60,841 bases of DNA from Dehalococcoidales bacterium (GTDB lineage: Bacteria; Chloroflexota; Dehalococcoidia; Dehalococcoidales; RBG-16-60-22): the NCBI GenBank assembly GCA_028714335.1, contig JAQTMM010000002.1, positions 1-60,841 on the forward strand. The letters run 5' to 3'. Below the pieces are notes generated by a model. That model was given only the letters and a program-made list of their open reading frames with translations. It did no database searches and was not told where the DNA came from. The position numbers and the translations under genes were made by a program. Below are positions 4,508 through 26,621 of the stretch, piece by piece; the stretch's first letter is position 1, and each line of letters starts with the position of its first letter.

Positions 4508-4510
4508 AAA

Positions 4511-6305: not shown

Positions 6306-7112
6306 TTAGAGATATCCAAACGGCTCTTCAGCGTCGATGAAGTGAACCGGAATTCCTCCCAACAGCGGTTGGAGACGTTTGGGCAGTTCTTTCATGCCGG
6401 GCTCCTCGCTGCGCTCATGGCCTACCACAATCATGGCTTTATTGAAGCCTAAAGCCGCCGCATCACGGACGTAAGCGCTTAAAGTCCATTCGGTAATCTC
6501 ACCGCAAACCATGACGTCCAGCTGCTGTTCCTTCATAAGTTCGGCAGGCATCTCTTCGCGGCCAAGCCCTAGACTCCCACCGCCAACCAGTATGCCAACG
6601 CGGCTGCACTTCATCTTCGGGTCGCCAATGATTTGGATGACTTTCATACCAAGAGTCTTCTTAAAAAACTTTACCAGGTTAGAAACAGTCGTCGGGGGTA
6701 TTACGTAACAATGCGGGTGCGGGAGACCTTTCACCAAATAGTCCTGCCATCTCAGCACATCCAGCAATCCATCGTAAATCAAGTCGCCGTTGCCCATGTG
6801 CATATGGTCGTGGTATCGCCAGATGGATATCTTGCTGTCTTCAATCAAAGCCTTTTTACTATAGTATATCGGGTCGTCTTTCAACCAATCGGTCTTATCA
6901 AGGCCGGAGAAATAAAGCGGCTCGTGGGTGATGACAAAGTCGCAGCCCATTTCTTTTGCCTTGCGGATAACATCAACGGTTGCCATGAACGTGGTAGCGA
7001 TGCTCGTTACCTGCTGGCCCCAGCTGCCCGCGAGAAGCTGGTCGCAGGTTGGGTTAACTCTCTTATTGCCATTCAGCGTCAGGACTATTTCTGTCACTTC
7101 TTTTACGTTCAT
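6306..7112 (-). CDS. Nif3-like dinuclear metal centre protein
   Basis: 268 aa with VITHEPLYF and WRYHDHMH metal-binding motifs and a C-terminal GHERSEEPGM motif, all typical of the NIF3 family. Confidence 0.8.
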   Translation of the reverse strand: MNVKEVTEIVLTLNGNKRVNPTCDQLLAGSWGQQVTSIATTFMATVDVIRKAKEMGCDFVITHEPLYFSGLDKTDWLKDDPIYYSKKALIEDSKISIWRYHDHMHMGNGDLIYDGLLDVLRWQDYLVKGLPHPHCYVIPPTTVSNLVKFFKKTLGMKVIQIIGDPKMKCSRVGILVGGGSLGLGREEMPAELMKEQQLDVMVCGEITEWTLSAYVRDAAALGFNKAMIVVGHERSEEPGMKELPKRLQPLLGGIPVHFIDAEEPFGYL

Positions 7113-11336: not shown

Positions 11337-13778
11337 CTAACAACCTTGTTCACTACGGTAGATAATGTCGTCCTGGATTTCCGGAGAAAGCATGACGAAG
11401 TAAGCGCTGAAACCCCCCACCCTGACCACCAAATCACGGTGCTTTTCCGGATGTTCTTTAGCGTCGAGCAGTTCTTTTGTATCCACCATATTGTACTGGA
11501 TATGCTGCCCGCCATTCTTAAAGAAAGTATCGGTCAGTATTGCCAGCTTCTCACGGCTTTCCGGCGTCTGCATGACGGTGCTGGAAAACTTCTGGTTGAG
11601 GCACGAGGCATACGATTCTTTAAAGCCCGCTTTAAGCGCCGACCGGATAACCCCGGTGGGACCTAATTTATCCATGCCGCGCATCGGGGATATCGAGCCG
11701 TCGTTCAGAGGTTCTTTGGATTTTCTGCCGTTAGGTAAAGCGCCTACGCCAAGACCGCCGAAGTAATGCCATGACAGACCTTCGCGTGAAATTTTACAGG
11801 GCACGTCGAAGGGGTTTTTATACGCCATGATAACGCTACCGGAAAACTGCCCAACTTCCTTAACCATCAAGTCGGCTTCCTCTATATCGTTACCGAACTT
11901 TGGCGCCGCTAGGCACATCTGCCGGATTTCCTCGCCTTGGTCTCCGGCAAAGTTGCTGTCAATAGCGCTAAGTAACTCGTCCATTGTTAGCTTTTTCTCG
12001 TCGAAGACCAGGTGCTTAATCGCCGTAAAAGAATCCGCCGCGTCAACGATAGCGCGGTCGCTAATGCCGTAGCTGTGGTCGGCGGCAGTGATAAGGATAT
12101 CCCGCCCCTTTTCCATACACGAAGGCCCGGCGATGCAGGAGTTAAACGGAAATCGTAGATATTTAGGCTCGACGCTCTGGGCTAAAGTGCCCATCCACAA
12201 TACACGGTTGACGACATATTTATATTCCTTCTTGAATGCCTCGTACAAATCGTTAAAACTTTTAAAGTCACGTGGGTCGCCGACGTCAATGCCGACTTTT
12301 TTGCCGGTTATCTGCGACACGCCGCGGTGCAGCGTCAGGTCGAATAACAGGGCGACGTTGACCGCCCCTTTGCCTTCGCTGCCGTTATGGTCAACCTTGG
12401 TGGGGAGAATGGGGGTTACACAGCCCTGCCCGTACCATTCCCTGGCGTCGCCGGCGGGTGTTCCATCATTGATAAAGCTGGACACAACATGGTCGCTGTT
12501 CTCAAAGAGAGGAATGCCTCCCTTGGTTTTATAGTTAGTCTCCAAAGCCTTCAGCAATAATGAGCGCGGCGTTCCTGAATGCCAGTTAAGCAGAACAGTC
12601 GGCGAAGATATCTTAATCAAGCCTATCAGGTGGAGCACCAAATAGCTTAAAGTATTGGTGGCGTCTTTGCCCATCCTGTCCACACCACCGAGGTTGATGC
12701 TGTTAATGCAAAAACTAAACTGATGGGTTTCCAACTGTGTTTTACCGACGGGGAGGACAACTTTCATGCCCCAGAGTATCAAGGCGCTGCCTAATAATTC
12801 TGCCGCCCGTTCCAGAGTTAGACGCCCGTCCTGGAGATCTTTTTCCAGATACGAACCCAGATACTGGTCAACCCTGCCGACCAGGAGCGGATACATGGCT
12901 TCCAGCCCCCGACCGACCATGATGAAATTCATTAACTGCAAAGCCTCGTGGAAGGTTTGCGCCGGATTTTCCGGGACGCGTTCGCAGATGCCGGCGATTT
13001 CCAGCAATTCTTTCTTTCTATCCGCGTCGGATTCTTTTTCGGCTTTTTGACGCGCCAGTTCGGCATAGCGGCGAGCATAGGTAATCATCGCCTCGCAGAC
13101 AATAATCGCAGACTGCCAGAAATAGAGTTTGTTAACATCATTTTCCTGCATCTCTCCAAAGCTCTTGATGCCGGCTTTGGCTTCTTCGATTAAGCCGCGT
13201 ACGCCTTTGGACAACAGCTTTTCCCACAAGCCCCGGCAAGTAACACCCGGGTAGTAACCGGAATCGGGGGTGGGGTCAGCGCCTTTAGCTTCGGAGATAT
13301 CCTGCGGCCAAGTGTTAAAGACGTCACGCCAAGTTTCAACGACGTAGTCGGGCGCTGTTTTTCCATCAAAGTAACGTGAGCATTTCCTTAATATTTCCTT
13401 ATCTTCTTTGTTTTTAAATTCCATCCAACGGCTTAATTTGTCGGCTTCATCCCAGAGCCCGGCGACGGAATTTCCGATTTCGTCCACAAAAGCCGGCGCC
13501 CCGATGAGGTGCTCCGTTTCTCTGCCGACGATGACGTCGACGTCGTGGATGGCGATGGGAACGCCTTCCAAAACTTTTTTGAATACTTTGGCGCGGCGGA
13601 GTTCGATGTCTTCGCCCTCCGTTTCCTGCCAGGACTCCATCACCAGCCGGGCGCGGTCAACGGAAATCATGCGAGGGGCGCCGAACATGGCGTCCTTAAG
13701 CTGGAAGAGACGCGGGCTTAACGTTAGTTTATTGATTTTTTCTAAGAGTTCTTCGCCGGTATTTGATTTCACAACCAT
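11337..13778 (-). CDS. Glycyl radical enzyme (PFL2/dehydratase-like fold), substrate unknown
   Basis: 813 aa with the C-terminal glycyl radical motif VVRVGGFSAYFVMLSPEIQDDII. A single candidate catalytic Cys sits near residue 453 in WYGQGCVTPILP. PFL2-family helices are present (WQSAIIVCEAMITYARRYAELA, NPAQTFHEALQLMNF). Confidence 0.9.
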   Translation of the reverse strand: MVVKSNTGEELLEKINKLTLSPRLFQLKDAMFGAPRMISVDRARLVMESWQETEGEDIELRRAKVFKKVLEGVPIAIHDVDVIVGRETEHLIGAPAFVDEIGNSVAGLWDEADKLSRWMEFKNKEDKEILRKCSRYFDGKTAPDYVVETWRDVFNTWPQDISEAKGADPTPDSGYYPGVTCRGLWEKLLSKGVRGLIEEAKAGIKSFGEMQENDVNKLYFWQSAIIVCEAMITYARRYAELARQKAEKESDADRKKELLEIAGICERVPENPAQTFHEALQLMNFIMVGRGLEAMYPLLVGRVDQYLGSYLEKDLQDGRLTLERAAELLGSALILWGMKVVLPVGKTQLETHQFSFCINSINLGGVDRMGKDATNTLSYLVLHLIGLIKISSPTVLLNWHSGTPRSLLLKALETNYKTKGGIPLFENSDHVVSSFINDGTPAGDAREWYGQGCVTPILPTKVDHNGSEGKGAVNVALLFDLTLHRGVSQITGKKVGIDVGDPRDFKSFNDLYEAFKKEYKYVVNRVLWMGTLAQSVEPKYLRFPFNSCIAGPSCMEKGRDILITAADHSYGISDRAIVDAADSFTAIKHLVFDEKKLTMDELLSAIDSNFAGDQGEEIRQMCLAAPKFGNDIEEADLMVKEVGQFSGSVIMAYKNPFDVPCKISREGLSWHYFGGLGVGALPNGRKSKEPLNDGSISPMRGMDKLGPTGVIRSALKAGFKESYASCLNQKFSSTVMQTPESREKLAILTDTFFKNGGQHIQYNMVDTKELLDAKEHPEKHRDLVVRVGGFSAYFVMLSPEIQDDIIYRSEQGC

Positions 13779-13803: not shown

Positions 13804-14706
13804 TTATTTTGAAATTGTACACTCTACCCCGTAAGACTCGAATGCTTTTACGATTGATTCGAGGTGCTGTGGCTCGGGCTGGAGGATATCGGGGAGAGGG
13901 TATTTTTTATCTAAAGATTCATACTTACCCTTGCCCAAACGATGATACGGCATTAACTCAACGTGAGGAGCTATTCCCAAGCCTTTTAAAAAGTCTGCCG
14001 TTTCCTTGATGTTTTGCGTATTATCGTTGATGCCCGGAATCAGCGGCATCCTGAAAAGCGTTGCCACACCACTTGCCGCCGTCGCTCTGGCGTTGGAAAG
14101 GATTAACTTGTTAGTTTTGCCGGTATATTCACAGTGCTTGTCCGAATTCATATGCTTGATATCGTAAAGTACATAGTCGGTCAAAGGGAGTACTTGTTTT
14201 AAAGCAGATTCGGTAGCGCAGCCTGAAGTCTCTATGCAGGTGTGGATACCGTCCTTACGGCACTTTTCAAATAATTCACATACCAGTTGCGGCTGCAACA
14301 AAGCCTCGCCGCCGGAGACGGTTACGCCGCCTGACGCCTCGTAAAACATTTTATCGCGTTCCACCGCGTCGTAGATTTCTTCAGCGGTCATCGGTTTTCC
14401 ATAGAGAACAAGCGCTCTATAAGAACACACGTCAACACATTCGCCGCAGCCGTTACAGCGCGCTCGGTCAATCACGGGCAGCTTGCCCTCTTCATAAACC
14501 AATGCGTCGTTAGGGCAGACTCCGGCGCACTTGCCGCATATAGTACAAAGCGCTTTTACCAAGCCTATCTCTGCATGCGGCGAGATGCACTCCGGGTTGC
14601 TGCACCACCCGCACTCAAGACCGCAGCCTTTCATAAAGACAACCGTCCTGATACCCGGCCCGTCGTGAATCGAATACCCCTGGATATTGGTGACCAGACC
14701 TACCAT
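13804..14706 (-). CDS. Glycyl-radical enzyme activating protein (radical SAM)
   Basis: 300 aa with a CGLECGWC (CX3CX2C) radical SAM cluster motif. It has a two-ferredoxin insert (CTICGKCAGVCP, CNGCGECVDVC) and the SAM-binding motif VSGGEAL. Confidence 0.9.
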   Translation of the reverse strand: MVGLVTNIQGYSIHDGPGIRTVVFMKGCGLECGWCSNPECISPHAEIGLVKALCTICGKCAGVCPNDALVYEEGKLPVIDRARCNGCGECVDVCSYRALVLYGKPMTAEEIYDAVERDKMFYEASGGVTVSGGEALLQPQLVCELFEKCRKDGIHTCIETSGCATESALKQVLPLTDYVLYDIKHMNSDKHCEYTGKTNKLILSNARATAASGVATLFRMPLIPGINDNTQNIKETADFLKGLGIAPHVELMPYHRLGKGKYESLDKKYPLPDILQPEPQHLESIVKAFESYGVECTISK

Positions 14707-14729
14707 TAAATGTCATCCCAGATTTTTTG

Positions 14730-15143
14730 TTATTTAAACGGCTCTTCTTTTTTAACGTATTTTGAGGCGATGCTGGTGTGGAAAAGAATGATGGGCTTAT
14801 CTACCCGTTTAAAGACGAGCGGGCAGTGCACCATACCGGCGGGGATGTAGACGCTGGTCGGTTTAGTGAAGGTATGCATTTCCTGCTCCTCGCCCAACCC
14901 GATTACTATCTCCCCGAAGAGCTCATCCATGTTGTTATAATCATAAGAAACAAAGTGCAGGTACATATCAAAGTCGTGGGAATGAGGGGATTCTTCCATC
15001 CGGCACGGCGCCACGACTTTGGTAATCATAAACGTCATATTGGTGTCATAGTCAATATCGCCTATCCATTCCATCGTAGGATACGGTTCCGGCTTGGTTA
15101 CCTTTTTACTGATTACATACTTCCCGTATTTTGAGTCTGCCAT
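14730..15143 (-). CDS. Small cupin-fold protein
   Basis: 137 aa with the cupin-like metal motifs SPHSHDFDMYLHF and YIPAGMVHCP. It sits between the IclR gene and the GRE activase, with 19- and 23-nt gaps. Confidence 0.55.
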   Translation of the reverse strand: MADSKYGKYVISKKVTKPEPYPTMEWIGDIDYDTNMTFMITKVVAPCRMEESPHSHDFDMYLHFVSYDYNNMDELFGEIVIGLGEEQEMHTFTKPTSVYIPAGMVHCPLVFKRVDKPIILFHTSIASKYVKKEEPFK

Positions 15144-15162
15144 TGGTAGAATCCTCCTGTTA

Positions 15163-15987
15163 TCATTTACTTAATACTTTTTTCATGTTGCCGATTTTTT
15201 GTTGAAACACTAGGTGCCCGGCGTCTTTAGAAATAGTTTTAACTGCTTCTACAACCAGGGGGCCATACTGCAAAGTTTCTTTCCCGGAAAAGAAACCGAC
15301 GATTGTGACATAACCGACGGGGTAGTTGTTCTGGTCCAAGATAGGCGCCGCCACGGCGTTCATCCCCGGCTGGATATCACCCAGTTCTAAAGAAAATCCA
15401 CGGCGGCGGCACTCCGCCAATTCATCTAAAAGCTTTTTTTTATCAAATTTCCCCGGAGTGCCGTAAAAGTAGAGGTCTTTACTCTTTAGTAATTCGTCCA
15501 GCTCGTCTTGAGGCAGAAAAGCGGCGATGGCTTTGCCGTGAGAGCCGTAGGTGATGGGGGTGGTGTAACCGATCGGCGAGGAAACACCCATGCCCGGCGC
15601 TCCTAAATACTCGGCGACGGTGAAGGTAACATCTTTAAAAATTACGCCCATTGTCACCGTAGCTTCGGTTTTTTTAGCAAGTTCGTAAAGCACCGGCTCG
15701 GCGAGGCGGGGGAGGCTTAACGTTTCCAACATCTTGCCGGCGAGGGTCACCAGCCCGGGTCCAAGCACATATCCCTTGCGGTTGGGATTCTTTTTCACAA
15801 AGCCGTATGCGTTGAGGGTGTTCAGGATGGAAAAAGCTTTGCTGCGGTGGATGTCCACTTCCTGGCAGATGTCGGTGAGGCTTTTGGGATTGCCGCCGTT
15901 ATCCGCCAGGCAAAGCATAACGCGAATTGCCTGTTCAACCGATGGAACTAGATAAGTGTTTTTCTCCTGCTGGTCATTATCATTCAT
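15163..15987 (-). CDS. IclR family transcriptional regulator
   Basis: 274 aa. It has an N-terminal wHTH (SVEQAIRVMLCLADNGGNPKSLTDICQEVDIHRSKAFSILNTL) and a C-terminal IclR effector domain (GFSLELGDIQPGMNAVAAPI). Confidence 0.85.
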   Translation of the reverse strand: MNDNDQQEKNTYLVPSVEQAIRVMLCLADNGGNPKSLTDICQEVDIHRSKAFSILNTLNAYGFVKKNPNRKGYVLGPGLVTLAGKMLETLSLPRLAEPVLYELAKKTEATVTMGVIFKDVTFTVAEYLGAPGMGVSSPIGYTTPITYGSHGKAIAAFLPQDELDELLKSKDLYFYGTPGKFDKKKLLDELAECRRRGFSLELGDIQPGMNAVAAPILDQNNYPVGYVTIVGFFSGKETLQYGPLVVEAVKTISKDAGHLVFQQKIGNMKKVLSK

Positions 15988-16220
15988 AATAGTTTTCTTG
16001 ATAGAACTTAAGTTTTGTGGATAGAATAACAGAGTGCAAGATTATTGTCAAACTATTGCTTGACTTTCTGCTAGAAAAGAAAGCAAGAAGCCGGTTGCCT
16101 TTTCTCTATTATCTTTTCTTAACTATATTCAGCTGCGATACTTTTCAGCCATATATTGTCCAATATTATGACTTTTGCGTATTGTTTACTAAATATATAT
16201 GCGCAATCATGTAGTATTAT

Positions 16221-16249
16221 TTGACAATATGCACGGATTGCGGTAAAAT
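16221..16249 (+). promoter_or_regulatory. Sigma70-like promoter for the Mo/W oxidoreductase operon
   Basis: TTGACA (16221-16226), a 17-nt spacer, then TAAAAT (16244-16249), about 65 nt upstream of the ATG at 16313. Confidence 0.45.
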
Positions 16250-16312
16250 GGAAACAATATATCAAAAAATATCGTACAGAAAACTTGAAAAGAATAGGAT
16301 AGCTTGTAAATT

Positions 16313-18421
16313 ATGGAGAAGATAATAAAAAGTAACTGCCGGGGCTGTCATGGAGGCTGCGGCGTATTAGTCCATGTTGAAGACGGACGTATCACCAAGA
16401 TAGAAGGCAATCCCGATTTCCCTACTAATCACGGGGTCATGTGCAGCCGGGGGTTGTCCTTCCTTCAGTTGGTATACCATCCCGATAGGGTGACGCATCC
16501 GCTGCGGCGAACCGGTAAACGCGGCGAGGGCAAGTGGGAACAGATTTCCTGGAACGAGGCGCTGGATACCATAGCTGAAAAGTATAAAAAAATAATAGCA
16601 GAGTACGGCGCCGAATCTATCGCCCTGGGTTACGGTACTGGGCGTAATTATGAAGGCTTTTTATATCGCTTCTCCAACCTGCTGGGGACGCCCAATGTAC
16701 TTACCTCCGGCCATATGTGCTATGGGCCGAGGGTTGCCACCAGCGGCATCATCAACGGCAAACTGACTTTATGCGATTATGAAAACAACCCCAAGTGCGT
16801 CGTCGTTTGGGGTAACAACGTCGTCATCAGCAACGGCGATGAATATACCGGTGAGAATCTTACTAAGGCTCTGGCCCAGGGTACTAAACTCATTGTTGTT
16901 GACCCCAGACTCACCTATCTGGCAGGACGGGCTGACGTCTGGCTGCAGCTACGCCCGGGAACCGACGTCGCTTTGGCAATGGGTATGGCGAACGTCATCG
17001 TGGAAGAAAAGCTTTATGATAAAAACTTCGTTGAAAAATACGTTTACGGGTGGGACGAGTTTACCGCCAGGATTAAAGAATACAACCTGGAAAAGGTAGA
17101 AGAAATAACGTGGGTGTCGGCGGATAAGATAAGAGAAGCCGCCCGGCTTTATGCCACTACCAAACCTGCGGGCATACAATGGGGCTGCGCCATCGAACAG
17201 AATATCAACTGCACGGACAGCGTCCGCGCGCTGGTGTCTTTAATGGCAATTACTGGCAACCTCGACGTTCCGGGGGGCAATATCTCTCCAGAATCGCCGC
17301 CATGGCTGCCTGTCAGCCAGTTTGCCATGCATCACGAATTGCCCGCCGAACAGCGTGCCAAACGGCTGGGAGGCGATACGTATAAGCTGGCAGACAGAAT
17401 AGCCGTAATTACCCCCAAGGTCGTCTGGGACGCTATTCTGACCGGCAAGCCCTACCCTATTAAAGCGGTACAGATTCACGGTTCCAACCCGGTTATCACG
17501 CGGTCTAACGCCGCCGAGGTTTATAAGGCTTTAAGCAAACTCGATTTTTTAGTTGTGGCTGATTTCTTCCTGACGCCTACAGCCGAACTGGCCGATATCT
17601 TTTTACCGGCGGCAACCTGGCTTGAGATGGAAGACATCGGTGATTACTGGAAGCGCCAGAACTATATCTACCCCAGAACTAAAATCATCCAGGTCGGCGA
17701 ATGCCGTTCGGACCATGAGATGTTCCTGGAGCTGGGGAAAAAGCTGGGGCAAAAAAACCAGTGGTTCGATACCGTAGAAGGCAACCTCGACTATATCCTC
17801 AAGCCGATGGGGCTTACCTGGCAGGAGTTCCGGCGCCTTGATTACTATAGGGTATCGCAAAAATACCGTAAATATAAGACCGAAGGCTTCCGTACGCCTA
17901 CCGGCAAGGTCGAGCTTTATTCAACCATTATGGAGAAATGGGGTTACGACCCGCTGCCCATTTACCGCGAAACGCCGGAAAGCCCGGTCAGTAAACCGGA
18001 AATGGTCAAGGATTATCCCTTAATCCTGATAACCGGAGCCAGGTCGCCCGTTTTTTACACCTCCGAGCACCGTATGATTCCCTGGTTAAGGGAAATCGTC
18101 CCCGACCCTATCGTCGAGATACATCCAAAAACAGCTGAAAAACTGGGAATCGGTAATCACCAGTGGGTTTACATCGAGACGCCGCGCGGCAGAATCAAGC
18201 AGCGGGCTTTACTCACCACCGGCATTAATCCCGGTGTGGTAGCGGCGCAGTACGGCTGGTGGTTCCCCGAGGAAAAAACCCCGGGGCACGGCTGGGAAAA
18301 ATCAAACGTCAATATCCTTACGGATAATGATACCAAAGGTTATGATGTGGCGATGGGCGCAGACAACCTTAGAGTATTGATGTGTAAAATATACCCGACT
18401 GGAGATAAAGATGAATCCTAA
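16313..18421 (+). CDS. Molybdopterin (Mo/W-bisPGD) oxidoreductase catalytic subunit, cytoplasmic
   Basis: 702 aa with an N-terminal 4Fe-4S motif (CRGCHGGCGV...C at approximately residue 44). There is no twin-arginine signal peptide. A candidate metal-ligand Cys lies in GHMCYGPRV. The protein reads as DMSO-reductase-superfamily throughout. Confidence 0.85.
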   Translation: MEKIIKSNCRGCHGGCGVLVHVEDGRITKIEGNPDFPTNHGVMCSRGLSFLQLVYHPDRVTHPLRRTGKRGEGKWEQISWNEALDTIAEKYKKIIAEYGAESIALGYGTGRNYEGFLYRFSNLLGTPNVLTSGHMCYGPRVATSGIINGKLTLCDYENNPKCVVVWGNNVVISNGDEYTGENLTKALAQGTKLIVVDPRLTYLAGRADVWLQLRPGTDVALAMGMANVIVEEKLYDKNFVEKYVYGWDEFTARIKEYNLEKVEEITWVSADKIREAARLYATTKPAGIQWGCAIEQNINCTDSVRALVSLMAITGNLDVPGGNISPESPPWLPVSQFAMHHELPAEQRAKRLGGDTYKLADRIAVITPKVVWDAILTGKPYPIKAVQIHGSNPVITRSNAAEVYKALSKLDFLVVADFFLTPTAELADIFLPAATWLEMEDIGDYWKRQNYIYPRTKIIQVGECRSDHEMFLELGKKLGQKNQWFDTVEGNLDYILKPMGLTWQEFRRLDYYRVSQKYRKYKTEGFRTPTGKVELYSTIMEKWGYDPLPIYRETPESPVSKPEMVKDYPLILITGARSPVFYTSEHRMIPWLREIVPDPIVEIHPKTAEKLGIGNHQWVYIETPRGRIKQRALLTTGINPGVVAAQYGWWFPEEKTPGHGWEKSNVNILTDNDTKGYDVAMGADNLRVLMCKIYPTGDKDES

Positions 18422-18869
18422 ATCTAGAAAATTGGCGTTAAGTATCAACAATGATATCTGTGTTGGCTGTTATGCCTGTGAGATAGCTTGCAAACAGGAA
18501 CACAATCTTCCGGTCGGCCCAAGGTTAATCAGCGTCCACCCCGAAGAACCACGGGAGATAGATGGTAAACCGCAACTAAGGAACCGGGTGGAATACTGCC
18601 TTCAATGCATTTCAGCTCCATGCCAAAGCGCCTGCCCGCAAAACGCCATAAGCACAAGGGATGACGGCATCGTTGTTATTGACGGAGAACTCTGCAACGG
18701 CTGCGGGGAGTGCATTAAAGCCTGCACCTTTGGTGTGATGCAGTTCGATGATATAAAGAAGCTCGCCCTAAAATGCGACCTTTGTGTAGAAAGACTGGAC
18801 AAAGGCCTGCAGCCCGCCTGCATAAGCTCATGTCCCAGTCATTGTATTAGTATCAATAAACGGGGCTAG
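18411..18869 (+). CDS. 4Fe-4S dicluster domain electron-transfer subunit
   Basis: 152 aa, overlapping the alpha subunit by 11 nt. It has four Cys groups: CVGCYACEIAC, CLQCISAPCQSACP, CNGCGECIKAC and CDLC...CISSCP. Confidence 0.85.
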   Translation: MNPKSRKLALSINNDICVGCYACEIACKQEHNLPVGPRLISVHPEEPREIDGKPQLRNRVEYCLQCISAPCQSACPQNAISTRDDGIVVIDGELCNGCGECIKACTFGVMQFDDIKKLALKCDLCVERLDKGLQPACISSCPSHCISINKRG

Positions 18870-18894
18870 TTTAAGTATCAACTAACTGCTGTTA

Positions 18895-20772
18895 CTATTT
18901 TTTCGGTGACGACTCCCCATAAATGTCTTTGATAACATTTTCAAGGTCGCCTACTCCCCGCAAAGATTCCAGGGTTGGTTTACCCGTTTCCCAATCCCAA
19001 TCTAGAATTCTGTAGAAATTCTTGCCTAAGCGGTCATTATCAACTGTTACACCGGCAACGGGCCCTTCTTTCTGGGGAGGATTACCTAATGACCTTGGAG
19101 GCATGACAAAGTCAGGCCGCCTTAAACCTTCCCTAATATTAAAAGCCTGTCTCATGGTTAGAATACGCTTACCAACGGCAAAGAGGTGACGGGCCTTAAA
19201 CGGCCAGCCGGTTAATGCCTCCATATAGTCGTTATAAGTACCTTCCGGTATAAAATCTTCGGAGAACAGACAGAAACCAGCGGAATTTAAAACTTCCTTC
19301 TTGAAGGTGTCATATACGTCCATAAAACCGGTCCCGTCGTAGTTGTATTCCTCGCCAGTTTTATTATTTTCTTGTATGTGGCCAAGCCCGCCCTTAACAT
19401 GCCGGGCTGGTGTGGGGTCAAATTGGTAGCTTCGCCCAAAACCGGGGGCAAATCTGGGGTCGTGCATAGGAAACTCAACGCCCCGGACGGTCTGTAAATA
19501 TTCGAAACCCTTGCCCCATTTATTTGCGGCTCCCTGCGAGCCTAAAGCCAGCACAGCGCCGCAGCCATCACCGTCTGCCATTTTCTGTGTGATTTTTACA
19601 ATGGCTTCGCTGTTTCCCCATGTTAACTCAATCCCGTCCAGTTCTTCTTTAGAAAGAATGCCCTCATTGTAGCATTCCATCGCCCATGCCACGGTTGCCC
19701 CGGCTGATATGGTATCCAGGCCCATTCTATTGCAAATATCATTGGTTTTGATTAAAGATTCTGCATCAACGTTCAACAGCATACTGCCGAACGCGGAAGC
19801 TGTTTCGTATTCGGGACGGTCTGTCTTACCAACAGGCCATTTGCCCGTATTTACTTCATACTCGGCGCCGCACCCCAGCGGGCAATTCGAGCAAGCGTAT
19901 TTTCCTATTCTGTATTTATCAAGTCCTTGAGAGCTAATGTTTTGAACATTAACTTCGTCATAGTCTATTATGCCGACCCCTCCCCAGTTTTTAACCGGAG
20001 AATTTCCATCCATGGCGGAAATAGTTGTGCCGACTCCCGTGCCAAATCCCCCGAGCATGGTAACGCCTTCTTTCTGCTCGTTTTTCATGTAACTGCTTAC
20101 CCTGCGGTTGATTTCTTGTAGTTTTTCCGGGTTGGCTACAGGTATTTCGGCTTCTCCCCTAACCACGATTGCTTTTAATTTTTTAGAACCCATGACAGCG
20201 CCTCCACCACCCCTCGCCGGCGCGCGATGGCCCTCATTAATCGGGCAGGATATCAAGGACATTTTCTCGCCTGCAGGCCCGATTATTGAAGCCCGGATTT
20301 TAGTATCTCCGTATTCCTCAATCAGGGCAGTTAACGTGTCTTTAGTATCTTTTCCCCACAAATGACTGGCGTCTTTAATCTCGGCTTTGCCATCCTTAAT
20401 CCAGAGATAAACCGGGCTTTTAGATATTCCAGTTACAAAAACTGCATCATAGCCTGCTTTCTTCAGTTCCTTGCCAAAGTAACCCCCGGAATTGGCGTCA
20501 TTCCACCCACCGGTAACCGGAGATTTGCAGACTAAAGTATAACGGGAACCAAAGAAAGCTCCTGACCCTGTCGCCGGCCCCGTAATGAATCCCAGGATAT
20601 TTTCCGGGCCGAGGGGATCGGCTCCCGGTTTCATCATGTCATATAGCAATTTTACGCCTATTCCATAGCCCCCGATGTAGTTCATAGCTAAATCATCGGA
20701 AATCGCTTTCTCTTCTATCTTTTTATTGGTTAGATTTACAAACAGCATTTTCCCCACGTAACCTTTAGCCAT
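18895..20772 (-). CDS. Aldehyde:ferredoxin oxidoreductase (tungstopterin AOR family)
   Basis: 625 aa with the AOR N-terminal segment GKMLFVNLT...YIGGYGIG. The FeS ligand motif CSNCPLGCG is present, and both the AOR_N and AOR_C regions are recognisable. Confidence 0.9.
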   Translation of the reverse strand: MAKGYVGKMLFVNLTNKKIEEKAISDDLAMNYIGGYGIGVKLLYDMMKPGADPLGPENILGFITGPATGSGAFFGSRYTLVCKSPVTGGWNDANSGGYFGKELKKAGYDAVFVTGISKSPVYLWIKDGKAEIKDASHLWGKDTKDTLTALIEEYGDTKIRASIIGPAGEKMSLISCPINEGHRAPARGGGGAVMGSKKLKAIVVRGEAEIPVANPEKLQEINRRVSSYMKNEQKEGVTMLGGFGTGVGTTISAMDGNSPVKNWGGVGIIDYDEVNVQNISSQGLDKYRIGKYACSNCPLGCGAEYEVNTGKWPVGKTDRPEYETASAFGSMLLNVDAESLIKTNDICNRMGLDTISAGATVAWAMECYNEGILSKEELDGIELTWGNSEAIVKITQKMADGDGCGAVLALGSQGAANKWGKGFEYLQTVRGVEFPMHDPRFAPGFGRSYQFDPTPARHVKGGLGHIQENNKTGEEYNYDGTGFMDVYDTFKKEVLNSAGFCLFSEDFIPEGTYNDYMEALTGWPFKARHLFAVGKRILTMRQAFNIREGLRRPDFVMPPRSLGNPPQKEGPVAGVTVDNDRLGKNFYRILDWDWETGKPTLESLRGVGDLENVIKDIYGESSPKK

Positions 20773-20911
20773 ATTTTCTCCTTATCTGTTTATTCTCGTT
20801 ATTTTATCATATTAAGCTAAACAATTTATACTTTATCCCTAACGGTTTGATGCTTCTTCCTAATTGAGTTATAGTTATTCCAGAAATATTACCTCAAAGA
20901 AAAGAGGCTAC

Positions 20912-22309
20912 ATGGAAACGTTAAGAATTGGATTCGTTCCCGCCCACCGCGAACCCTTCGGGGAGGACTGGGCAGTCAAAATGCGCCGCCGCTGCCTAGA
21001 CGCTTTAGCCTCCCACCCCCTCCTTGAAATCGTCGTGCCTGATGAAAAACTCACCCGAGGCGGCTGCGTCCGCGACGACGCCGAAGCGGAAAAGGTCATC
21101 GCTTTATTTCAGGAAAAGAAAATCAACGGTTTGATTATCGGCACTGTTACCTTCGGCGATGAAGTCGCCGCACTTACCGTAGCCTCGGCTTTTCGTGATA
21201 AACCTATTCTCCTATTTGGCACAAAGGAAGGTCCCTTCACTAAAGACGGTAACCGCCTCTCCGATTCGTTTTGCGGCACGCTTTCCATATCTTCCGGCTT
21301 ACACCGCCGCAAGATTCCCTTCCTCTTTGGCGGCATCGTCTTTCCGGAAGAAAAAACCTTTAAAAACACCATCGCCGATTTTGCCCGCGTCTGCGCTATT
21401 TCTCGCGGTTTTATCGGGGCGAATATAGGCTTGGTCGGCCCACGCCCAGAACGCTTTGAGACCTGCATCTTCAGCGAAGACCAATTGATGCGTAAGTTCA
21501 ATCAAAGGGTCATCCCCATTGACCTCGCCGACATTATGAGTATCGCTGCGGCGCAGAAGAACTCTGCAGCAGTGAAAAAACTCGTCGAAAAAACCAAAAA
21601 GCAGACTAAAACGTCCGGCGTCGAAGCCGCTACCCTGCAAAACATCGCCGGGCTGGAATACGCTTTAGAGAAGTTTGCCGCTGGTAAAAACCTTGCCGCT
21701 ATGGGCGTGCAATGCTGGACGGCCATGCAGAGCGTTTACGGCATCTCGCCCTGCTACGCCATGGGCTGTATGACCGATAAAGGCGTGATGACCGCCTGCG
21801 AGGTTGATATTTACGGCGCTTTAACGATGCTCCTCCAATACCTGGCGGCTCTGGGCAAGACCGTCCCGCACTTTATTGACTGGACGATAAAGCACCAGGA
21901 AAAGGAAAATGTATTCCTCGCCTGGCATTGCGGTAACGGCCCGCCCTCTTTAACCTGTAAAGGAGGCGATATAGAGCTTAAATATCACAGCATTTTAGGC
22001 ACGTCTCTTGGTTTGGACCGCTCTAAAGGCACCGGCGAATTTCAGCTCGCCCCCGGCGCGGTGACACTTTCACGTCTGCAGGAGCACGACGGCGAATTCA
22101 AGCTGCTGGTGGCTAAAGGGAAAATCGTTGCCTCCAATCAAAAGCTGCGCGGTTCCTGGAGCTGGGTTGAAGTGCCTGACCTCGATAAACTCTATTCCAC
22201 CCTCGTTAAAGAGGGCTTTACCCACCACGCCTCCTTAATTCACGGCGATTTTTCCAACGCTTTAATAAGCGCCTGCGACTTGCTGGGTATCAAAGTTGTT
22301 GTAGTATAA
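20912..22309 (+). CDS. L-fucose/L-arabinose isomerase family protein
   Basis: The ORF track starts at a TTG at 20864. An ATG at 20912 is preceded by AAGAGG 6 nt upstream, so I prefer that start. The fold looks fucose-isomerase-like (RIGFVPAHREPF..., C-terminal FTHHASLIHGD). Confidence 0.7.
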   Translation: METLRIGFVPAHREPFGEDWAVKMRRRCLDALASHPLLEIVVPDEKLTRGGCVRDDAEAEKVIALFQEKKINGLIIGTVTFGDEVAALTVASAFRDKPILLFGTKEGPFTKDGNRLSDSFCGTLSISSGLHRRKIPFLFGGIVFPEEKTFKNTIADFARVCAISRGFIGANIGLVGPRPERFETCIFSEDQLMRKFNQRVIPIDLADIMSIAAAQKNSAAVKKLVEKTKKQTKTSGVEAATLQNIAGLEYALEKFAAGKNLAAMGVQCWTAMQSVYGISPCYAMGCMTDKGVMTACEVDIYGALTMLLQYLAALGKTVPHFIDWTIKHQEKENVFLAWHCGNGPPSLTCKGGDIELKYHSILGTSLGLDRSKGTGEFQLAPGAVTLSRLQEHDGEFKLLVAKGKIVASNQKLRGSWSWVEVPDLDKLYSTLVKEGFTHHASLIHGDFSNALISACDLLGIKVVVV

Positions 22310-22327
22310 GTTCAAGAAAGGGGAAAT

Positions 22328-23185
22328 ATGTTTAAGTTCGGCGTTGATTCGCTTATCTGGACGGAAGAGTTCACAGAAAAAGACCTGCCGCTGATTGAGA
22401 AGGCTAAATCTTTAGGCTTTGAAGTCATCGACATTAACGTTAGCCACCCCGAGCGCTTTCCCGTCAAGGCTGTTAAAGAAAAAATCAAAGAGGTCGGCAT
22501 TGAGGCGGTCACAACCATCGGTCTCCCCGCCGATTCCAACCCCATCAGCCCTAAGCCGGAAGTCCGGCGCCACGCTTTAGAGACGCTTAAACTAATGGTT
22601 GATATCAACAACGAAATCGGCTCTAAGATTCTGGGCGGTGTTTTATATTCGGCGTGGGGCTATCTTTCCGGCAAGTGCCGCACCGACGAGGAATGGGCAT
22701 GGTCAGTGGCGGCTATGCGTGAGGTTTGCAACTACGCTAAAAACAAAAGCAACTTGATTTTAGCCATCGAGCCGGTCAACCGTTTCGAGACCCACTTTAT
22801 CAACATCGCCGAAGACGCGGTGAGGTACTGTAAAGAGGTGGGGACGGGTAACCTAAAAGTCCACCTCGACGCTTTCCACATGATACGTGAGGAGACAAGC
22901 TACCGCGAGGCTGTTTTAACCTGCGGCAAGGAATATCTGGGCTACATTCACGTCTGCGAGAATAACCGCGGCATACCCGGCACCGGTATGGTGCCCTGGC
23001 AGGAGTTTTTCACCGCCGTCAAAGAGATAGGCTATGACGGCCCCCTCACCATCGAGTCCTTCGACCCCAATTTTGAAGAGCTTAACCGCCTCTGCGCCAT
23101 CTGGAGAAAATTCGCCGACTCCGGCGAGGAGCTGGCGGTAAAGGGGCTGGCGAACCTTAAAAAAATCGAGGCAGCATTAAAGTAA
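22328..23185 (+). CDS. Xylose-isomerase-like TIM barrel sugar epimerase (D-tagatose/D-psicose 3-epimerase-like)
   Basis: 285 aa with a metal-ligand pattern typical of the family: LAIEPVNRFE, HLDAFHM and IHVCENNRG. Confidence 0.75.
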   Translation: MFKFGVDSLIWTEEFTEKDLPLIEKAKSLGFEVIDINVSHPERFPVKAVKEKIKEVGIEAVTTIGLPADSNPISPKPEVRRHALETLKLMVDINNEIGSKILGGVLYSAWGYLSGKCRTDEEWAWSVAAMREVCNYAKNKSNLILAIEPVNRFETHFINIAEDAVRYCKEVGTGNLKVHLDAFHMIREETSYREAVLTCGKEYLGYIHVCENNRGIPGTGMVPWQEFFTAVKEIGYDGPLTIESFDPNFEELNRLCAIWRKFADSGEELAVKGLANLKKIEAALK

Positions 23186-23198
23186 GGTTGAGGCTGAT

Positions 23199-23966
23199 AT
23201 GAGTATAGACAAATTATTCGAGATTAAAGGCCGCAGGGCTTTAGTGACGGGGGCGGGGCGGGGCATCGGTAAAGTACTGGCGCTTACTTTAGCCGAAGCC
23301 GGATGCGACGTCGCTTTATTCGGCTTGCACTCCAATTATCTGGAAGATGTTGCTGAACAGGCCAATAAATTCGGTGTTCGTACCCTCATTCTGGAGGGCG
23401 ATGTTTCCAAAAAAGCCGACGTGCAAAAGGCTTTTCAAGCTATTGCCAAAGACTTCGGACGGCTCGACATTTGCGTCAATAACGCCGGTATCAGCATGCA
23501 GGTGCCAGTCGAAGATATGGCGGAAGCGGACTGGGACCGCCTTCTGGACGTTAACATGAAGGGGGTGTTTCTCTGTTCACAGGAAGCCGCCAAACTCATG
23601 AAACCGCAAAAAAACGGCAGCATTATCAACATCGGCTCAATATCCGCCCGTACCGTTAATGTCCCCCAGAAGCAGGCCGTCTATAACACCACTAAAGCCG
23701 GCGTAGTCATGTTGACACAAACCATGGCCGTGGAATGGGCGCCCTATGGCATCCGTGTGAACTCCATTAGTCCCGGCTATATGAAAACTGAAATGGTGCT
23801 CTCTTCCATGTCGAAGCTATTCCCGGAATGGGAATCGTTGACGCCGCTTAACCGCCTGGGCGAACCGGAAGAACTGCGTGGCGCTTTACTTTATCTGGCA
23901 TCGGATGCTTCAAGCTACGTCATCGGCCACGACTTAGTAGTAGATGGCGGCTACACAATCCGCTAG
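23199..23966 (+). CDS. SDR family oxidoreductase
   Basis: 255 aa with TGAGRGIG cofactor motif, NNAG, and the catalytic YNTTK. Confidence 0.85.
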   Translation: MSIDKLFEIKGRRALVTGAGRGIGKVLALTLAEAGCDVALFGLHSNYLEDVAEQANKFGVRTLILEGDVSKKADVQKAFQAIAKDFGRLDICVNNAGISMQVPVEDMAEADWDRLLDVNMKGVFLCSQEAAKLMKPQKNGSIINIGSISARTVNVPQKQAVYNTTKAGVVMLTQTMAVEWAPYGIRVNSISPGYMKTEMVLSSMSKLFPEWESLTPLNRLGEPEELRGALLYLASDASSYVIGHDLVVDGGYTIR

Positions 23967-24995
23967 CTACATCTCGATGATTGTCTTCACCGAGCGTGGC
24001 TCCGGATTAGCCGCGTAATCGTACGCTTTAATGGCGTCGACGAACTTATATTTGTCAGTAACCAATGGTTTGACGTTTATCTTACCCGAACCCAATAGCG
24101 CCACCGCCCGCGGGTAGATATTGGCGTACCTAAAGACCGATTCCATTCTGGCTTCTTTAGCCTGCGCCGCCACGATATCCACCGGCACCGGTTCAACCGG
24201 CATTCCAATAAACACTACCTTGCCACCCGGGCACAACGGCTCGAAGATATTGGCAATGGCTTTTTCGTTGCCACTGGCTTCAAAGATAATATCGGTGCCC
24301 CATCCCCCGGTTTCATTTTTCACTACATCCACCAGATTTTGTGTCGTTATATTAACTGGAACCATACCGTACGCAGCCGCTATATCCAGTTTTGGTTGAA
24401 TGACGTCAGAAATAATAACCTTGCTGCAACCACCCGCTAAAGCAGCTAAGCCCGTCACCAGCCCGATTGTTCCGCAGCCCGTTACTAGAGCCACGTCTCC
24501 TGGTTTGACGTTAGCTTTTTTCACTGCTTGCAACCCCACCGAAAGAGGCTCGACCAGAGCCCCCTCTGCGTAACTCACGTTGTCCGGCAGCTTGAAACAG
24601 AACATCGCCGGGTGCACCACCGTTTCCCGCAAACATCCGTGAATTGGCGGCGTCGCCCAGAAAACTACGTCGGGGTCAAGGTTGTATATTCCCTCCATCG
24701 TCGCCCGGCTGTGCAGGTCGGGTATCCCCGGCTCCATGCAAACCCGGTCGCCGGCTTTAAGCGACTTTACGTTTTCCCCCACTTCAATCACCGTGCCAGA
24801 GGCTTCGTGTCCCAGCACCATCGGCTCCTTAACGATGAAGTTACCTATCTTCCCATGAGTGTAATAATGCACGTCGCTGCCGCAAATGCCTACGGTGTGT
24901 ATCTTTATGCGTACATCGTCCGCGCCCAGCGTTTCGTTAAAATCCATATCCAAAATGGCGAGCTTGCCCTTTTCTTTTAAAACCATCGCTTTCAT
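23967..24995 (-). CDS. Zn-dependent alcohol/polyol dehydrogenase (sorbitol/L-iditol dehydrogenase-like)
   Basis: 342 aa with [16 protein letters not shown] and a Rossmann motif GCGTIG. Its stop codon directly abuts the SDR stop codon in a convergent arrangement. Confidence 0.85.
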
Positions 24996-25055
24996 AACAC
25001 TCCTTTACGGGACCGTATTTCCTACAACTGCATTTTTTAACATTACTTTCATATA

Positions 25056-25073
25056 TGTTATTATACAATAACA
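25056..25073. promoter_or_regulatory. Candidate operator palindrome upstream of esterase copy 2
   Basis: Perfect 7-4-7 inverted repeat TGTTATT-ATAC-AATAACA, 37 nt upstream of the ATG at 25110. Confidence 0.3.
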
Positions 25074-25109
25074 CACCGGATATCACTCAAACTTAAAGAG
25101 GAGTTTTTT

Positions 25110-26621
25110 ATGCTACGCATCACGAAAACGGAAAACGGCACGGTTCGCGGAATTGGGGCGGCTGACCCGAGGATTACGGTTTTTAAAGGCGTGCCTTTTG
25201 CCGCGCCGCCTGTACGCGAATTACGCTGGCGGGCACCGCAACCGGCTAGCAACTGGAAAGGTGTGCGTGACTGCCTTGAATATATGCCCATAGCCATGCA
25301 GCGTATCCCGGGCGAAGACCCGCAGGCTTTTTATGCAAAAGAATGGCATGTGGAACCGGAAGTGCCAATGGATGAAGACTGCCTGTACCTGAATATCTGG
25401 ACGTTAGCTAAAACCGGCAAAGAAAAAATGCCGGTGATGGTCTGGATATACGGCGGCGGGTTAATGGAAGGTTATCCTTATGAAATGGAATTTGACGGCG
25501 AGCGTATTGCGCGGCGCGGCGTTATTTTAGTTTCCGTTAATTATCGACTCAATGTCTTCGGGTTTTTAACACACCCTGAAATAATCAAGTCGTCTCCGGA
25601 TGGGTTCACGGCAAATTGGGGCTACCTTGACCAAAAAGCCGGCATAGACTGGGTGCGGCGGAATATCAGCAGCTTTGGCGGCGACCCGGATAATATCACC
25701 ATTTTCGGGCAGTCGGCGGGCGGCGGCAGCGTCCTAGCACATATCAATTCTCCGCTGGCAAAAGGCGCTTTCGCCAAAGCCATCGTGCAGTCCGGAGGCG
25801 GTATTGATGTTAAAGGGCCTGCCTTTGAGTTGATGCCCTTCCTCAACCGTGAACAGCTGGCTAAACAGGGCGAAGCTTTCTTTAGCTTTATCGGTGCTAA
25901 AAATCTCGCTGAAGCTAGGAAGATTGATAGTAAAATATTAATGGCTAAACATATCGAATTCGGTAAATACTGGAACTCCACGATAGACGGTAAATACGTC
26001 GTTGAAGATGCTTGCGCTAGTATTATGGCTGGTCATCAGCACTCTATTCCCCTCATGACCGGCTCAACGCTTGACGAATCCCTTTTCGGTCCGCCGGACG
26101 ACAATATAGAAGGTTGGGCGAAAACAGCTATCCCAGACATCGCTGAAGAATACTGTAAGCTGGCGAAAGAAAAAGCCTCGGCTAAAAATATCATCCTAAA
26201 ACAGGCGGCTTCAGTCAATTTCTTCGAACTGTCCGCCAGCTTGTTCTGTGATTTTGTGGCCAACCAGGGTAAACCTAATATCTACAACTACCGCTTTGGA
26301 CCGGAAATCCCCGGCGACGATGTTGGAGCTTTTCATTCCTCCGACCTTTGGTTTGAGTTCGAAACGCTGGCAAAATGCTGGCGCCCTTTTACCGGCAAGC
26401 ATTACGATTTGGCGCGCCAGATGTGCAACTACTGGACCAACTTTGCTAAAAATGGCGACCCTAATGGGCATGACGCTGACGGCACTCCGATGCCGGTATG
26501 GACGCCCTACACCGTTAACTCACCATTAGCTATGGAGTTTTTTGATAAACCCGGCATGGAAAAAGCCCAGAACCGGATGAAAAAGCTGTTGATTGAGTAT
26601 AATAAAAAACTGTTGAAATAA
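25110..26621 (+). CDS. Type-B carboxylesterase, copy 2
   Basis: 503 aa with FKGVPFAAPPVRELRW, WIYGGG and the nucleophile elbow FGQSAGG. Confidence 0.85.
   Translation: MLRITKTENGTVRGIGAADPRITVFKGVPFAAPPVRELRWRAPQPASNWKGVRDCLEYMPIAMQRIPGEDPQAFYAKEWHVEPEVPMDEDCLYLNIWTLAKTGKEKMPVMVWIYGGGLMEGYPYEMEFDGERIARRGVILVSVNYRLNVFGFLTHPEIIKSSPDGFTANWGYLDQKAGIDWVRRNISSFGGDPDNITIFGQSAGGGSVLAHINSPLAKGAFAKAIVQSGGGIDVKGPAFELMPFLNREQLAKQGEAFFSFIGAKNLAEARKIDSKILMAKHIEFGKYWNSTIDGKYVVEDACASIMAGHQHSIPLMTGSTLDESLFGPPDDNIEGWAKTAIPDIAEEYCKLAKEKASAKNIILKQAASVNFFELSASLFCDFVANQGKPNIYNYRFGPEIPGDDVGAFHSSDLWFEFETLAKCWRPFTGKHYDLARQMCNYWTNFAKNGDPNGHDADGTPMPVWTPYTVNSPLAMEFFDKPGMEKAQNRMKKLLIEYNKKLLK

Follow-up and report, generated by a model that had tools for sequence, protein, structure and literature searches.

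The catechol dehydroxylases (Cdh) of gut bacteria are the closest relatives of acetylene hydratase (AH) (PMC7028382; PMC11585353). Those of the Gordonibacter type are smaller, have no twin-arginine translocation (Tat) signal and are encoded together with a small 4Fe–4S protein only (Dodh, PMC7028382; Gp Hcdh, PMC11585353). Many uncharacterized environmental homologues were already noted in the eLife 2020 paper, the phylogeny of which sets pyrogallol–phloroglucinol transhydroxylase (Pht) away from the AH/Cdh clade. We have analysed one such homologue, encoded in a 60,841-nt stretch of DNA from a landfill member of the Dehalococcoidales (contig JAQTMM010000002.1 of assembly GCA_028714335.1; this whole stretch is called the window below). 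Its catalytic subunit, alpha (702 aa; 16313..18421, plus strand), is a Mo/W enzyme of the bis-pyranopterin guanine dinucleotide (bisPGD) type, and the next gene encodes an electron-transfer subunit, beta (152 aa; 18411..18869, plus strand). We suggest that alpha–beta reduces, in the cytoplasm, an organic substrate that is probably a phenolic compound, the reaction being probably a dehydroxylation, and that the pair forms an independent two-gene module; we put the probability of this reading at roughly 0.55.

Among characterized enzymes, the Gordonibacter dehydroxylases (Dodh, Cldh, Gp Hcdh and 'eadh1') resemble the window enzyme in combining a Tat-less bisPGD alpha subunit with a small 4Fe–4S protein and no membrane anchor, and they give the top BLASTP scores (443–514 bits, 36–40% identity); moreover, major facilitator superfamily (MFS) transporter genes adjoin the orthologues of the window pair, as in Gordonibacter. 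They differ in length (~770–800 aa, against 702 aa for alpha) and in having an N-terminal extension, and they lack the first Cys of the CxxCxxxC...C motif of the FS0 cluster, which is complete in alpha. The window also belongs to a different phylum (Chloroflexota, from landfill), holds no MFS gene, and has an IclR neighbour in place of the regulators described for gut Coriobacteriia. AH of Pelobacter (Syntrophotalea) acetylenicus (PDB 2e7z) is likewise cytoplasmic, Tat-less and ~700–730 aa long, with an N-terminal [4Fe–4S] cluster and a Cys ligand, but it is a monomer without a dedicated FeS subunit and catalyses a non-redox hydration, in contrast to the window enzyme with its strictly conserved four-cluster beta. 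The catechol dehydroxylases Dadh, Cadh and Hcdh of Eggerthella lenta and the respiratory Psr/Phs/Dms complexes share with it the superfamily and the four-cluster type of beta subunit, but they are exported by a Tat leader, bound to the membrane by an anchor subunit and oriented to the periplasm, features that are all absent from the window enzyme. The large subunit of Pht, finally, has 875 aa and no FS0 cluster, unlike alpha with its FS0 motif. The soluble two-subunit architecture and the relationship between AH and the dehydroxylases are already published. New here are a Chloroflexota clade that appears to lie between AH and the Gordonibacter enzymes and carries putative diagnostic motifs, a range of electron-input modules, and the finding that the setting of the pair, between a glycyl radical enzyme (GRE) operon and an aldehyde:ferredoxin oxidoreductase (AOR) gene, is not conserved.

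The catalytic subunit

Alpha contains Molybdop_Fe4S4 (PF04879, E = 1e-17), Molybdopterin (PF00384, E = 9e-46) and Molydop_binding (PF01568, E = 3e-22), which is the domain set of the Mo/W-bisPGD (DMSO reductase) superfamily, including the N-terminal Fe4S4 domain. Its N-terminus (MEKIIKSNCRGCHGGC) begins MEKIIKSNC9RGC12HGGC16...C44, and the FS0 cysteines are C9, C12, C16 and C44. Since an in-frame TAA (16307–16309) lies three bases 5' of the alpha ATG and bars any N-terminal extension, and the first Cys is residue 9, a Tat leader is impossible; an RR motif ahead of the first Cys is likewise missing from all 119 full-length alpha homologues. The first-pass annotation of this DNA, which had described a 702-aa catalytic subunit with a CxxCxxxC...C 4Fe–4S site and no Tat leader, is therefore borne out by the Pfam matches and the upstream stop codon. 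Cys136 of alpha aligns with Cys141 of AH, with the sequence GHMCY invariant in the 119 homologues, and is the predicted metal ligand.

The best match of alpha among solved structures is AH (2e7z, 442 bits), the runners-up being FdhF and PsrA (~242 bits). In BLASTP comparisons with Dodh, Cldh and 'eadh1' sequences from the alignment that accompanies the eLife 2020 paper, and with AH, alpha scores 514 bits against Eadh1 (39.9% identity), 458 bits against Dodh (37.8%), 443 bits against Cldh (35.5%) and 415 bits against AH (36.5% over 721 residues), and the same order of dehydroxylases over AH is found in all eight members of the group of 73–86% orthologues. AH and these three dehydroxylases are 28–31% identical to each other (238–298 bits). 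The scores suggest that the window clade is intermediate between AH and the Gordonibacter dehydroxylases, and slightly closer to the latter. A neighbour-joining tree (numpy distance, 100 bootstraps) unites the Gordonibacter enzymes with three Dehalococcoidales sequences (L022, L024 and L035) in a 100%-supported group, which is sister to the window clade, with AH outside. The phylogeny of alpha for which the first-pass annotation had called thus gives the Gordonibacter dehydroxylases as neighbours of the clade, but its deep nodes are poorly supported, and for this reason we rely on the tree only alongside the bit scores and motifs.

As for the motifs, the catalytic Asp13 of AH (C-D-I-N-C), beside the second FS0 cysteine, corresponds to His13 in alpha and to His in all 119 close homologues (C-R-x-C-H-G-G-C), and Dodh, Cldh and Eadh1 likewise have His at this position (C-H-x-G-C). 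From the ligand Cys onwards alpha reads C-Y-G-P-R, AH C-I-G-N-T and the dehydroxylases C-Y-Q-P-R, C-M-L-P-R and C-Y-L-P-R, while GTGRN and SEHR are common to alpha and the dehydroxylases and absent in AH. Alpha would be placed near the dehydroxylases by its C-H-x-G-C, C-[YM]-x-P-R, GTGRN and SEHR motifs, the role of which is putative.

The alpha–beta pair and its electron supply

Beta matches Fer4_11 and carries four Cys groups of the [4Fe–4S] type (C17/20/23/27, C63/66/71/75, C95/98/101/105 and C122/125/137/141), its best solved relative being PsrB (2vpw_B, 93 bits). The two open reading frames (ORFs) share 11 nt, with a GGAG sequence 7 nt 5' of the beta ATG, and through this overlap beta appears to be translationally coupled to alpha. 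A putative sigma-70-like promoter of the pair (TTGACA-17-TAAAAT; 16221..16249, plus strand; a consensus match only) agrees with 11 of 12 consensus positions and is the top-scoring site within 14600–21000. No membrane anchor gene (NrfD/DmsC/cytochrome-b type) is present among the annotated neighbours in the window. In all of this the earlier description holds: it had listed a 152-aa partner with an 11-nt overlap and four Cys groups, a near-consensus promoter and no anchor gene. Genes for molybdenum cofactor biosynthesis, tungstate transport or molybdate transport are likewise absent from the window.

Our survey covered 49 alpha loci of species-representative genomes, to which three metagenome contigs were added. 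In the surveyed loci every alpha of at least 57% identity is directly followed by a beta-type gene. The 73–86% orthologues occupy seven loci (L001–L004 and L050–L052) in Dehalococcoidales and other Chloroflexota metagenome-assembled genomes (MAGs), and in these loci beta is a stand-alone protein of 161–168 aa, as in the window. In the 57–62% clade (L005 and L007–L011) beta is replaced by a fusion of 630–640 aa (e.g. L011, 9275–11200), in which a GltD-type NAD(P)H/FAD domain (Fer4_20 plus Pyr_redox_2) lies between N- and C-terminal ferredoxin halves; this domain order would imply direct NAD(P)H coupling of the bisPGD enzyme. A GltD-like NAD(P)H flavoprotein is encoded by a separate gene in L033 and L051. 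The pairing and the locus survey together identify beta as alpha's own partner.

A further form of wiring is seen in L003 (2507–12600), where GltD-like, HdrD-like CCG and HdrA–MvhD genes lie 5' of the 73% alpha–beta pair and in the same orientation; the GltD-like FeS flavoprotein has 1147 aa and the HdrA–MvhD fusion 812 aa. This set recalls the Hdr-like, electron-bifurcating modules that feed the W-pterin enzyme BamB-I (class II benzoyl-CoA reductase), with HdrA–MvhD, HdrD and GltD proteins that may here supply a Mo/W-pterin enzyme. The likeness concerns the wiring and nothing else: BamB is a member of the AOR family and not of the bisPGD enzymes, and the window contains no Hdr-type module.

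MFS transporter genes adjoin the orthologues in L002, L003 and L051. The neighbours in L051 also include thiolase-like and DUF35 genes and a GltD-type FeS flavoprotein, those in L050 are HGD-D genes, and those in L052 are CCG and FAD_binding_4 genes and three paralogues of a 137-aa protein of the GRE operon described below. In the wider family an AMP-dependent ligase is a neighbour in 7 loci, parts of corrinoid O-demethylases (URO-D, B12-binding, RACo and Pterin_bind) in 5–6 loci, and IclR-family regulators in 8 loci, all with at most 33% identity to the IclR protein of the window. From the neighbour survey we conclude that the family carries out redox reactions in the cytoplasm, with NAD(P)H or donors of low potential, and, from the recurrence of these neighbours, that many members are placed among genes for organic acids, often methoxylated-aromatic or CoA-activated. 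Considering that alpha–beta has neither Tat leader nor anchor, that beta is kept and that relatives show NAD(P)H or Hdr wiring, the prediction of a soluble cytoplasmic redox enzyme, not a respiratory reductase, stands. The window clade comprises thousands of sequences, mainly from Dehalococcoidales and Anaerolineae but also from Desulfobacterota, and is found in MAGs labelled Bathyarchaeia and Promethearchaeota as well.

The GRE operon, the AOR gene and the variable slot 5' of IclR

The ORF coordinates confirm that the pair is transcribed divergently from an IclR/GRE operon and converges on an AOR gene, an arrangement from which the first-pass annotation had proposed that the Mo/W pair, GRE and AOR may form one pathway. 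The gene for the IclR-family regulator (15163..15987, minus strand; Pfam HTH_IclR and IclR_C) is transcribed opposite to alpha. Beyond it, on the minus strand, lie the genes for a 137-aa cupin-fold protein (14730..15143), a GRE activase (13804..14706), the GRE (813 aa; 11337..13778) and, at the end of the operon, a COesterase (type-B carboxylesterase, 508 aa; 9771..11297). On the other side the AOR gene (625 aa; 18895..20772, minus strand) is separated from beta by 25 nt. Genes for an isomerase, an epimerase, a short-chain dehydrogenase/reductase (SDR), a zinc-dependent alcohol dehydrogenase (Zn-ADH) and a second COesterase (20864..26621) are 76–90% identical to genes of the locus L149; the second COesterase (503 aa; 25110..26621, plus strand) is a paralogue of the first, and the two esterases, both with orthologues in GRE-cluster loci (L056 56%, L149 80%), flank the region.

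Under the one-pathway proposal, a single IclR-controlled catabolic route could run, for example, from the cleavage of a plant ester or glycoside by the esterases through an aldehyde made by the GRE to its oxidation by AOR, with the reduced ferredoxin driving phenolic reduction by alpha–beta. The divergent promoter region common to alpha and IclR would suit such a route, as would the recurrence of esterases in the cluster. Considering the conservation of each part, we nevertheless regard it as unlikely, and a single three-enzyme pathway is not supported by the comparison of loci. None of the seven loci with 73–86% alpha orthologues has a GRE or an orthologue of the window AOR near the pair. The AOR-family genes near alpha are 33–34% paralogues only, in L003 (4 kb from the 73% orthologue) and in L024 (beside a 44% alpha paralogue). 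Conversely, neither the window alpha–beta nor any AOR gene is present in ~13 orthologous GRE-operon loci, most of which lack any Mo/W gene. The co-occurrence expected of one pathway thus fails from both sides, the pair occurring without the GRE operon and the GRE operon without the pair.

The GRE operon itself is conserved in these ~13 distinct Dehalococcoidales loci, with the GRE at 73–84% identity, the activase, the 137-aa protein at 70–88% and IclR at 64–76%; IclR orthologues head it in L054, L058, L060, L062 and L145–L149. SnoaL-like, TRAP transporter and esterase genes are frequent members of the operon, which usually adjoins a fucose-isomerase-like gene, an epimerase, an SDR and a Zn-ADH. 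Across L054–L062 and L145–L151 the operon reads IclR, cupin, (SnoaL), (TRAP DctPQM), GRE activase, GRE, esterase. In L149 the whole cluster is contiguous in one 14-kb block (second esterase 80%, Zn-ADH 88%, SDR 82%, epimerase 90%, GRE 84% and isomerase 76%, together with orthologues of IclR, cupin and activase), and the same genes are interrupted in the window by exactly the alpha–beta–AOR segment. In the window, alpha–beta and the AOR gene sit in a variable slot that splits this otherwise conserved cluster of GRE operon, isomerase, epimerase, SDR, alcohol dehydrogenase and esterase genes.

In L149 the slot 5' of IclR is taken by an arabinofuranosidase gene, in L148 by an ABC transporter and in L146 by an MFS gene together with an IS110 transposase; the transposase in particular suggests a rearrangement hot spot, which again argues against a fixed pathway. 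The IS110-family gene of L146 (1911–3347) is found immediately 5' of the IclR gene that heads the GRE operon. Around the alpha–beta–AOR block of the window, flanking repeats and scars of mobile elements were looked for and not found. The same slot holds AH/Cdh paralogues in L054 (44%, divergent as in the window) and in L062 (43%), so that AH/Cdh genes occupy it in 3 of ~13 arrangements as against 0 of 18 Chloroflexota control loci from the AOR search, numbers that are small and uncorrected for phylogeny. This recurrence, which favours the one-pathway proposal, is suggestive of a looser association at the level of the family. The L062 protein, however, has cytochrome b and quinone-type genes for company, which points to a different system. 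The L062 set (123–6889) consists of a Tat-less AH/Cdh paralogue of 732 aa (CKSCHGGC) upstream of the GRE operon, followed by a cytochrome-b561-type protein, a UbiA prenyltransferase, a radical-SAM/SPASM protein, a UbiE-like methyltransferase and a Staygreen-family protein; within the AH/Cdh family such a link to the membrane or to quinones is unusual. In our reading, the Mo/W pair of the window was inserted into a plastic slot in this lineage specifically.

The intergenic region of 325 bp (15988..16312) contains the putative promoters of both alpha and IclR, the latter being TTGACA-17-TATTCT (16051–16023, minus strand). Its IclR-proximal ~60 nt (15988–16060) are kept in L054 (~2650–2717) and L062 (~7195–7262) and hold this TTGACA-17-TATTCT sequence and two TTCTATC-N5-AAAACT repeats spaced 20 nt; the IclR proteins of the genomes that keep them are only 64–73% identical. 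This conserved stretch 5' of the IclR start is likely to be an autoregulatory operator. The alpha-proximal half, by contrast, is conserved only in the same species (L053), a further point against common control of the pair and the operon. The 3-kb contig concerned (GCA_028710905.1, JAQTTE010000133.1) is 98% identical across cupin, IclR and partial alpha and is labelled Candidatus Omnitrophica; it is the nearest entry to alpha in the assembly index, in which an exact copy was not found; since its arrangement is the same as that of the window, it is not independent evidence. The label is probably a binning artefact, the other relatives being Dehalococcoidales, and the close relatives of alpha, GRE and AOR all come from Dehalococcoidales, Dehalococcoidaceae or other Chloroflexota MAGs. 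A megablast search with 16000–21000 against E. coli genomes was negative, and an enterobacterial origin of the region is accordingly rejected. Two further sequence patterns in the intergenic region were rejected. A 12-mer, CASAAAACTTRA, considered as a shared IclR operator, is present only in the two divergent leaders, but the pattern had been defined from its own two sites and, by a rough count of the comparisons, a chance match is expected; the inverted 10-mers TATTGTCAAA and TTTGACAATA merely contain both -35 boxes.

AOR has AFOR_N and AFOR_C domains, scores 377 bits against the Pyrococcus furiosus enzyme (1aor) and keeps the equivalents of its Cys288/291/295/494, Glu313 and His448; it is, as judged by these residues, a complete AOR-family protein. 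It is not a conserved partner of alpha–beta, neither alpha nor beta being found near AOR in any of 80 AOR loci. In L066 an 88% AOR orthologue adjoins the isomerase (77%) of the GRE cluster, and in L148 an iron-dependent alcohol dehydrogenase (Fe-ADH) and an aldehyde dehydrogenase follow GRE and isomerase in the equivalent position. AOR may well serve the GRE/sugar-type cluster as an aldehyde-oxidizing enzyme, and to this extent the idea that the GRE makes an aldehyde for AOR keeps some support, and with it the one-pathway proposal. The GRE, however, reads GCVTP at its Cys loop, where CutC and glycerol dehydratase (GDH) have GCVEP and HypD has GCVET, with the glycyl motif RVGGFS; since the catalytic Glu of the aldehyde-forming eliminases is missing, the same idea is weakened. 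The GRE is about equidistant from CutC, GDH, HypD and propanediol dehydratase (360–390 bits), with NCBIfam equivalog scores far below the cut-offs, and probably has a new GRE function.

With its eliminase-like GRE that lacks the catalytic Glu, its cupin and its SnoaL, TRAP and esterase genes, the GRE operon may be more original than the Mo/W pair. Pfam, NCBIfam and the PDB sequences give no match to its 137-aa protein, the 182 homologue clusters of which, from Dehalococcoidia and Thermoleophilia, are all annotated as hypothetical. The AlphaFold model (predicted local distance difference test 90.9 with an alignment, 44 from the single sequence) matches the monocupins MarH epimerase, TM1459, DddK and KdgF, which points to a previously unannotated monocupin fold, and H54, H56, D59 and H106 are invariant. 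Paralogues of this protein (30–45%) adjoin AH/Cdh-family genes in L002, L026, L035 and L052 and the AOR orthologue in L066. Near an AH/Cdh paralogue in L064, only the last 60 residues of a GRE (93%, the glycyl radical domain; 10001–10180) are encoded, beside a 2159-aa ORF; this fragment may be a GrcA-like spare glycyl-radical gene or a gene remnant. A window ORF of the same length as the GRE (813 aa; 55869–58310) was considered as a second GRE and rejected, being RecG, and the rest of the window consists of ordinary chromosomal genes (RecG, ribosomal protein L25, transketolase, a Zn ABC transporter and others).

Proposed function and its alternatives

From family placement and context we infer in which direction alpha–beta works, on what class of substrate, with which electron donor and with which metal, as follows. 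Electrons from reduced ferredoxin, or from a module of the NAD(P)H or Hdr type the genes of which lie elsewhere, would enter the four [4Fe–4S] clusters of beta and pass through the FS0 cluster of alpha to the Mo or W ligated by Cys136. There the metal centre would reduce an organic substrate, an aromatic acid of the phenolic or catecholic type being the most probable, and the reduction would most likely consist in the removal of a hydroxyl group as water.

Several points weigh against this proposal. The window clade is large, environmental, mostly from Chloroflexota and uncharacterized, with no characterized member; alpha lies outside the 100%-bootstrap clade of the Gordonibacter enzymes and L022/L024/L035, at 36–40% identity to the tested enzymes, and has the first FS0 Cys, which the Gordonibacter enzymes, with their N-terminal extension of 60–90 aa, lack. 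Since bisPGD enzymes can run oxidatively, sequence does not fix the catalytic direction. The immediate cluster in the window looks sugar-related and not aromatic, and the contexts of the 73–86% orthologues differ from locus to locus (MFS, thiolase/DUF35, HGD-D, CCG/FAD and Hdr-like), while the ligase and O-demethylase neighbours belong to the 37–62% subclades and not to these orthologues. Finally, although the window sequence is almost fully present in landfill metagenome runs, the matching runs are landfill DNA only and no RNA run contains it.

An alternative that runs in the opposite direction is an oxidative, water-dependent hydroxylase or dehydrogenase (cf. resorcinol hydroxylase and pyrogallol transhydroxylase), the substrate of which would be aromatic or alicyclic and the electrons of which would go via beta to ferredoxin or NAD(P)+. 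The cytoplasmic alpha–beta architecture resembles that of pyrogallol transhydroxylase, beta matches 4v4c_B (51 bits), and the GltD-like modules of the relatives could equally serve as NAD(P)+ reductases. The large subunit of the same enzyme (4v4c) is, however, missing from the 52 PDB matches of alpha at E <= 1e-10, the separate position of Pht in the eLife phylogeny speaks against a close relationship, and the low-potential Hdr-like module of L003 better suits a reductase. We consider an oxidative enzyme quite improbable.

Still less probable, in our view, is a non-redox hydratase of the AH type, which would add water to an alkyne or similar compound and supply an aldehyde to AOR, with beta only keeping the metal reduced. 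AH is the best solved relative, its Cys ligand and the equivalents of its Trp293 and Trp472 are kept, its activity requires a strong reductant, and an AOR gene adjoins the pair, although this neighbour is not conserved. The hydrophobic ring of AH reportedly comprises Ile14, Ile113, Ile142, Trp179, Trp293 and Trp472. Only two of these six residues are kept in alpha, the equivalents of Trp293 and Trp472, both conserved throughout the clade; Ile14 and Ile113 are replaced by Gly (the latter with Arg adjacent), Ile142 by Tyr and Trp179 by a residue other than Trp. Since the defining residues differ, in the ring as well as at the catalytic Asp13, which is His throughout the clade, alpha is not an acetylene hydratase. 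The dehydroxylases also score above AH, and a four-cluster beta that is strictly conserved, and fused to an NAD(P)H flavoprotein in relatives, would be out of place beside a monomeric hydratase.

A cytoplasmic reductase of an inorganic substrate such as polysulfide, thiosulfate, tetrathionate, arsenate, selenate or nitrate is the least probable of the alternatives, since the partial NCBIfam matches (Fdh-alpha 360 bits, PhsA 356 bits, DmsA, NasC and others) that might suggest it, along with the PsrB-like beta, all fall far below their cut-offs (694 for PhsA), the AH/Cdh relatives score about twice as high as Psr/Fdh, Tat signal and anchor are absent and the family neighbours are organic-acid genes (ligases, O-demethylases and MFS transporters); alpha is, by these scores, not a Psr/Phs/Dms-type reductase.

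Returning to the cytoplasmic reductase of an organic substrate, we tentatively suggest a wider possibility, the probability of which we set well below even: the window clade may represent widespread cytoplasmic Mo/W aryl dehydroxylases for aromatic acids, or their CoA esters, derived from lignin or polyphenols. Electrons would then come from NAD(P)H via the beta–GltD fusion or through Hdr-type bifurcating modules, and in the window the enzyme might have been recruited, with AOR as a reducer of ferredoxin, into a GRE-centred plant-ester cluster.

For annotation, these genes should not be named formate dehydrogenase, thiosulfate reductase or acetylene hydratase, and the adjacency of the GRE operon should not be taken as a pathway. 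With its stand-alone beta, beta–GltD fusion and Hdr-like sets, the family is well suited to a study of how cytoplasmic Mo/W reductases are wired. If the aryl dehydroxylase reading is true, it would fill long-standing gaps, such as the enzyme that dehydroxylates protocatechuyl-CoA. If phenolic dehydroxylation is indeed the reaction, a chemistry of a few gut Actinobacteria would extend to Chloroflexota that are abundant in sediments, landfills and aquifers, and alpha–beta would become a candidate for steps that are poorly understood where aromatics derived from lignin are turned over without oxygen.

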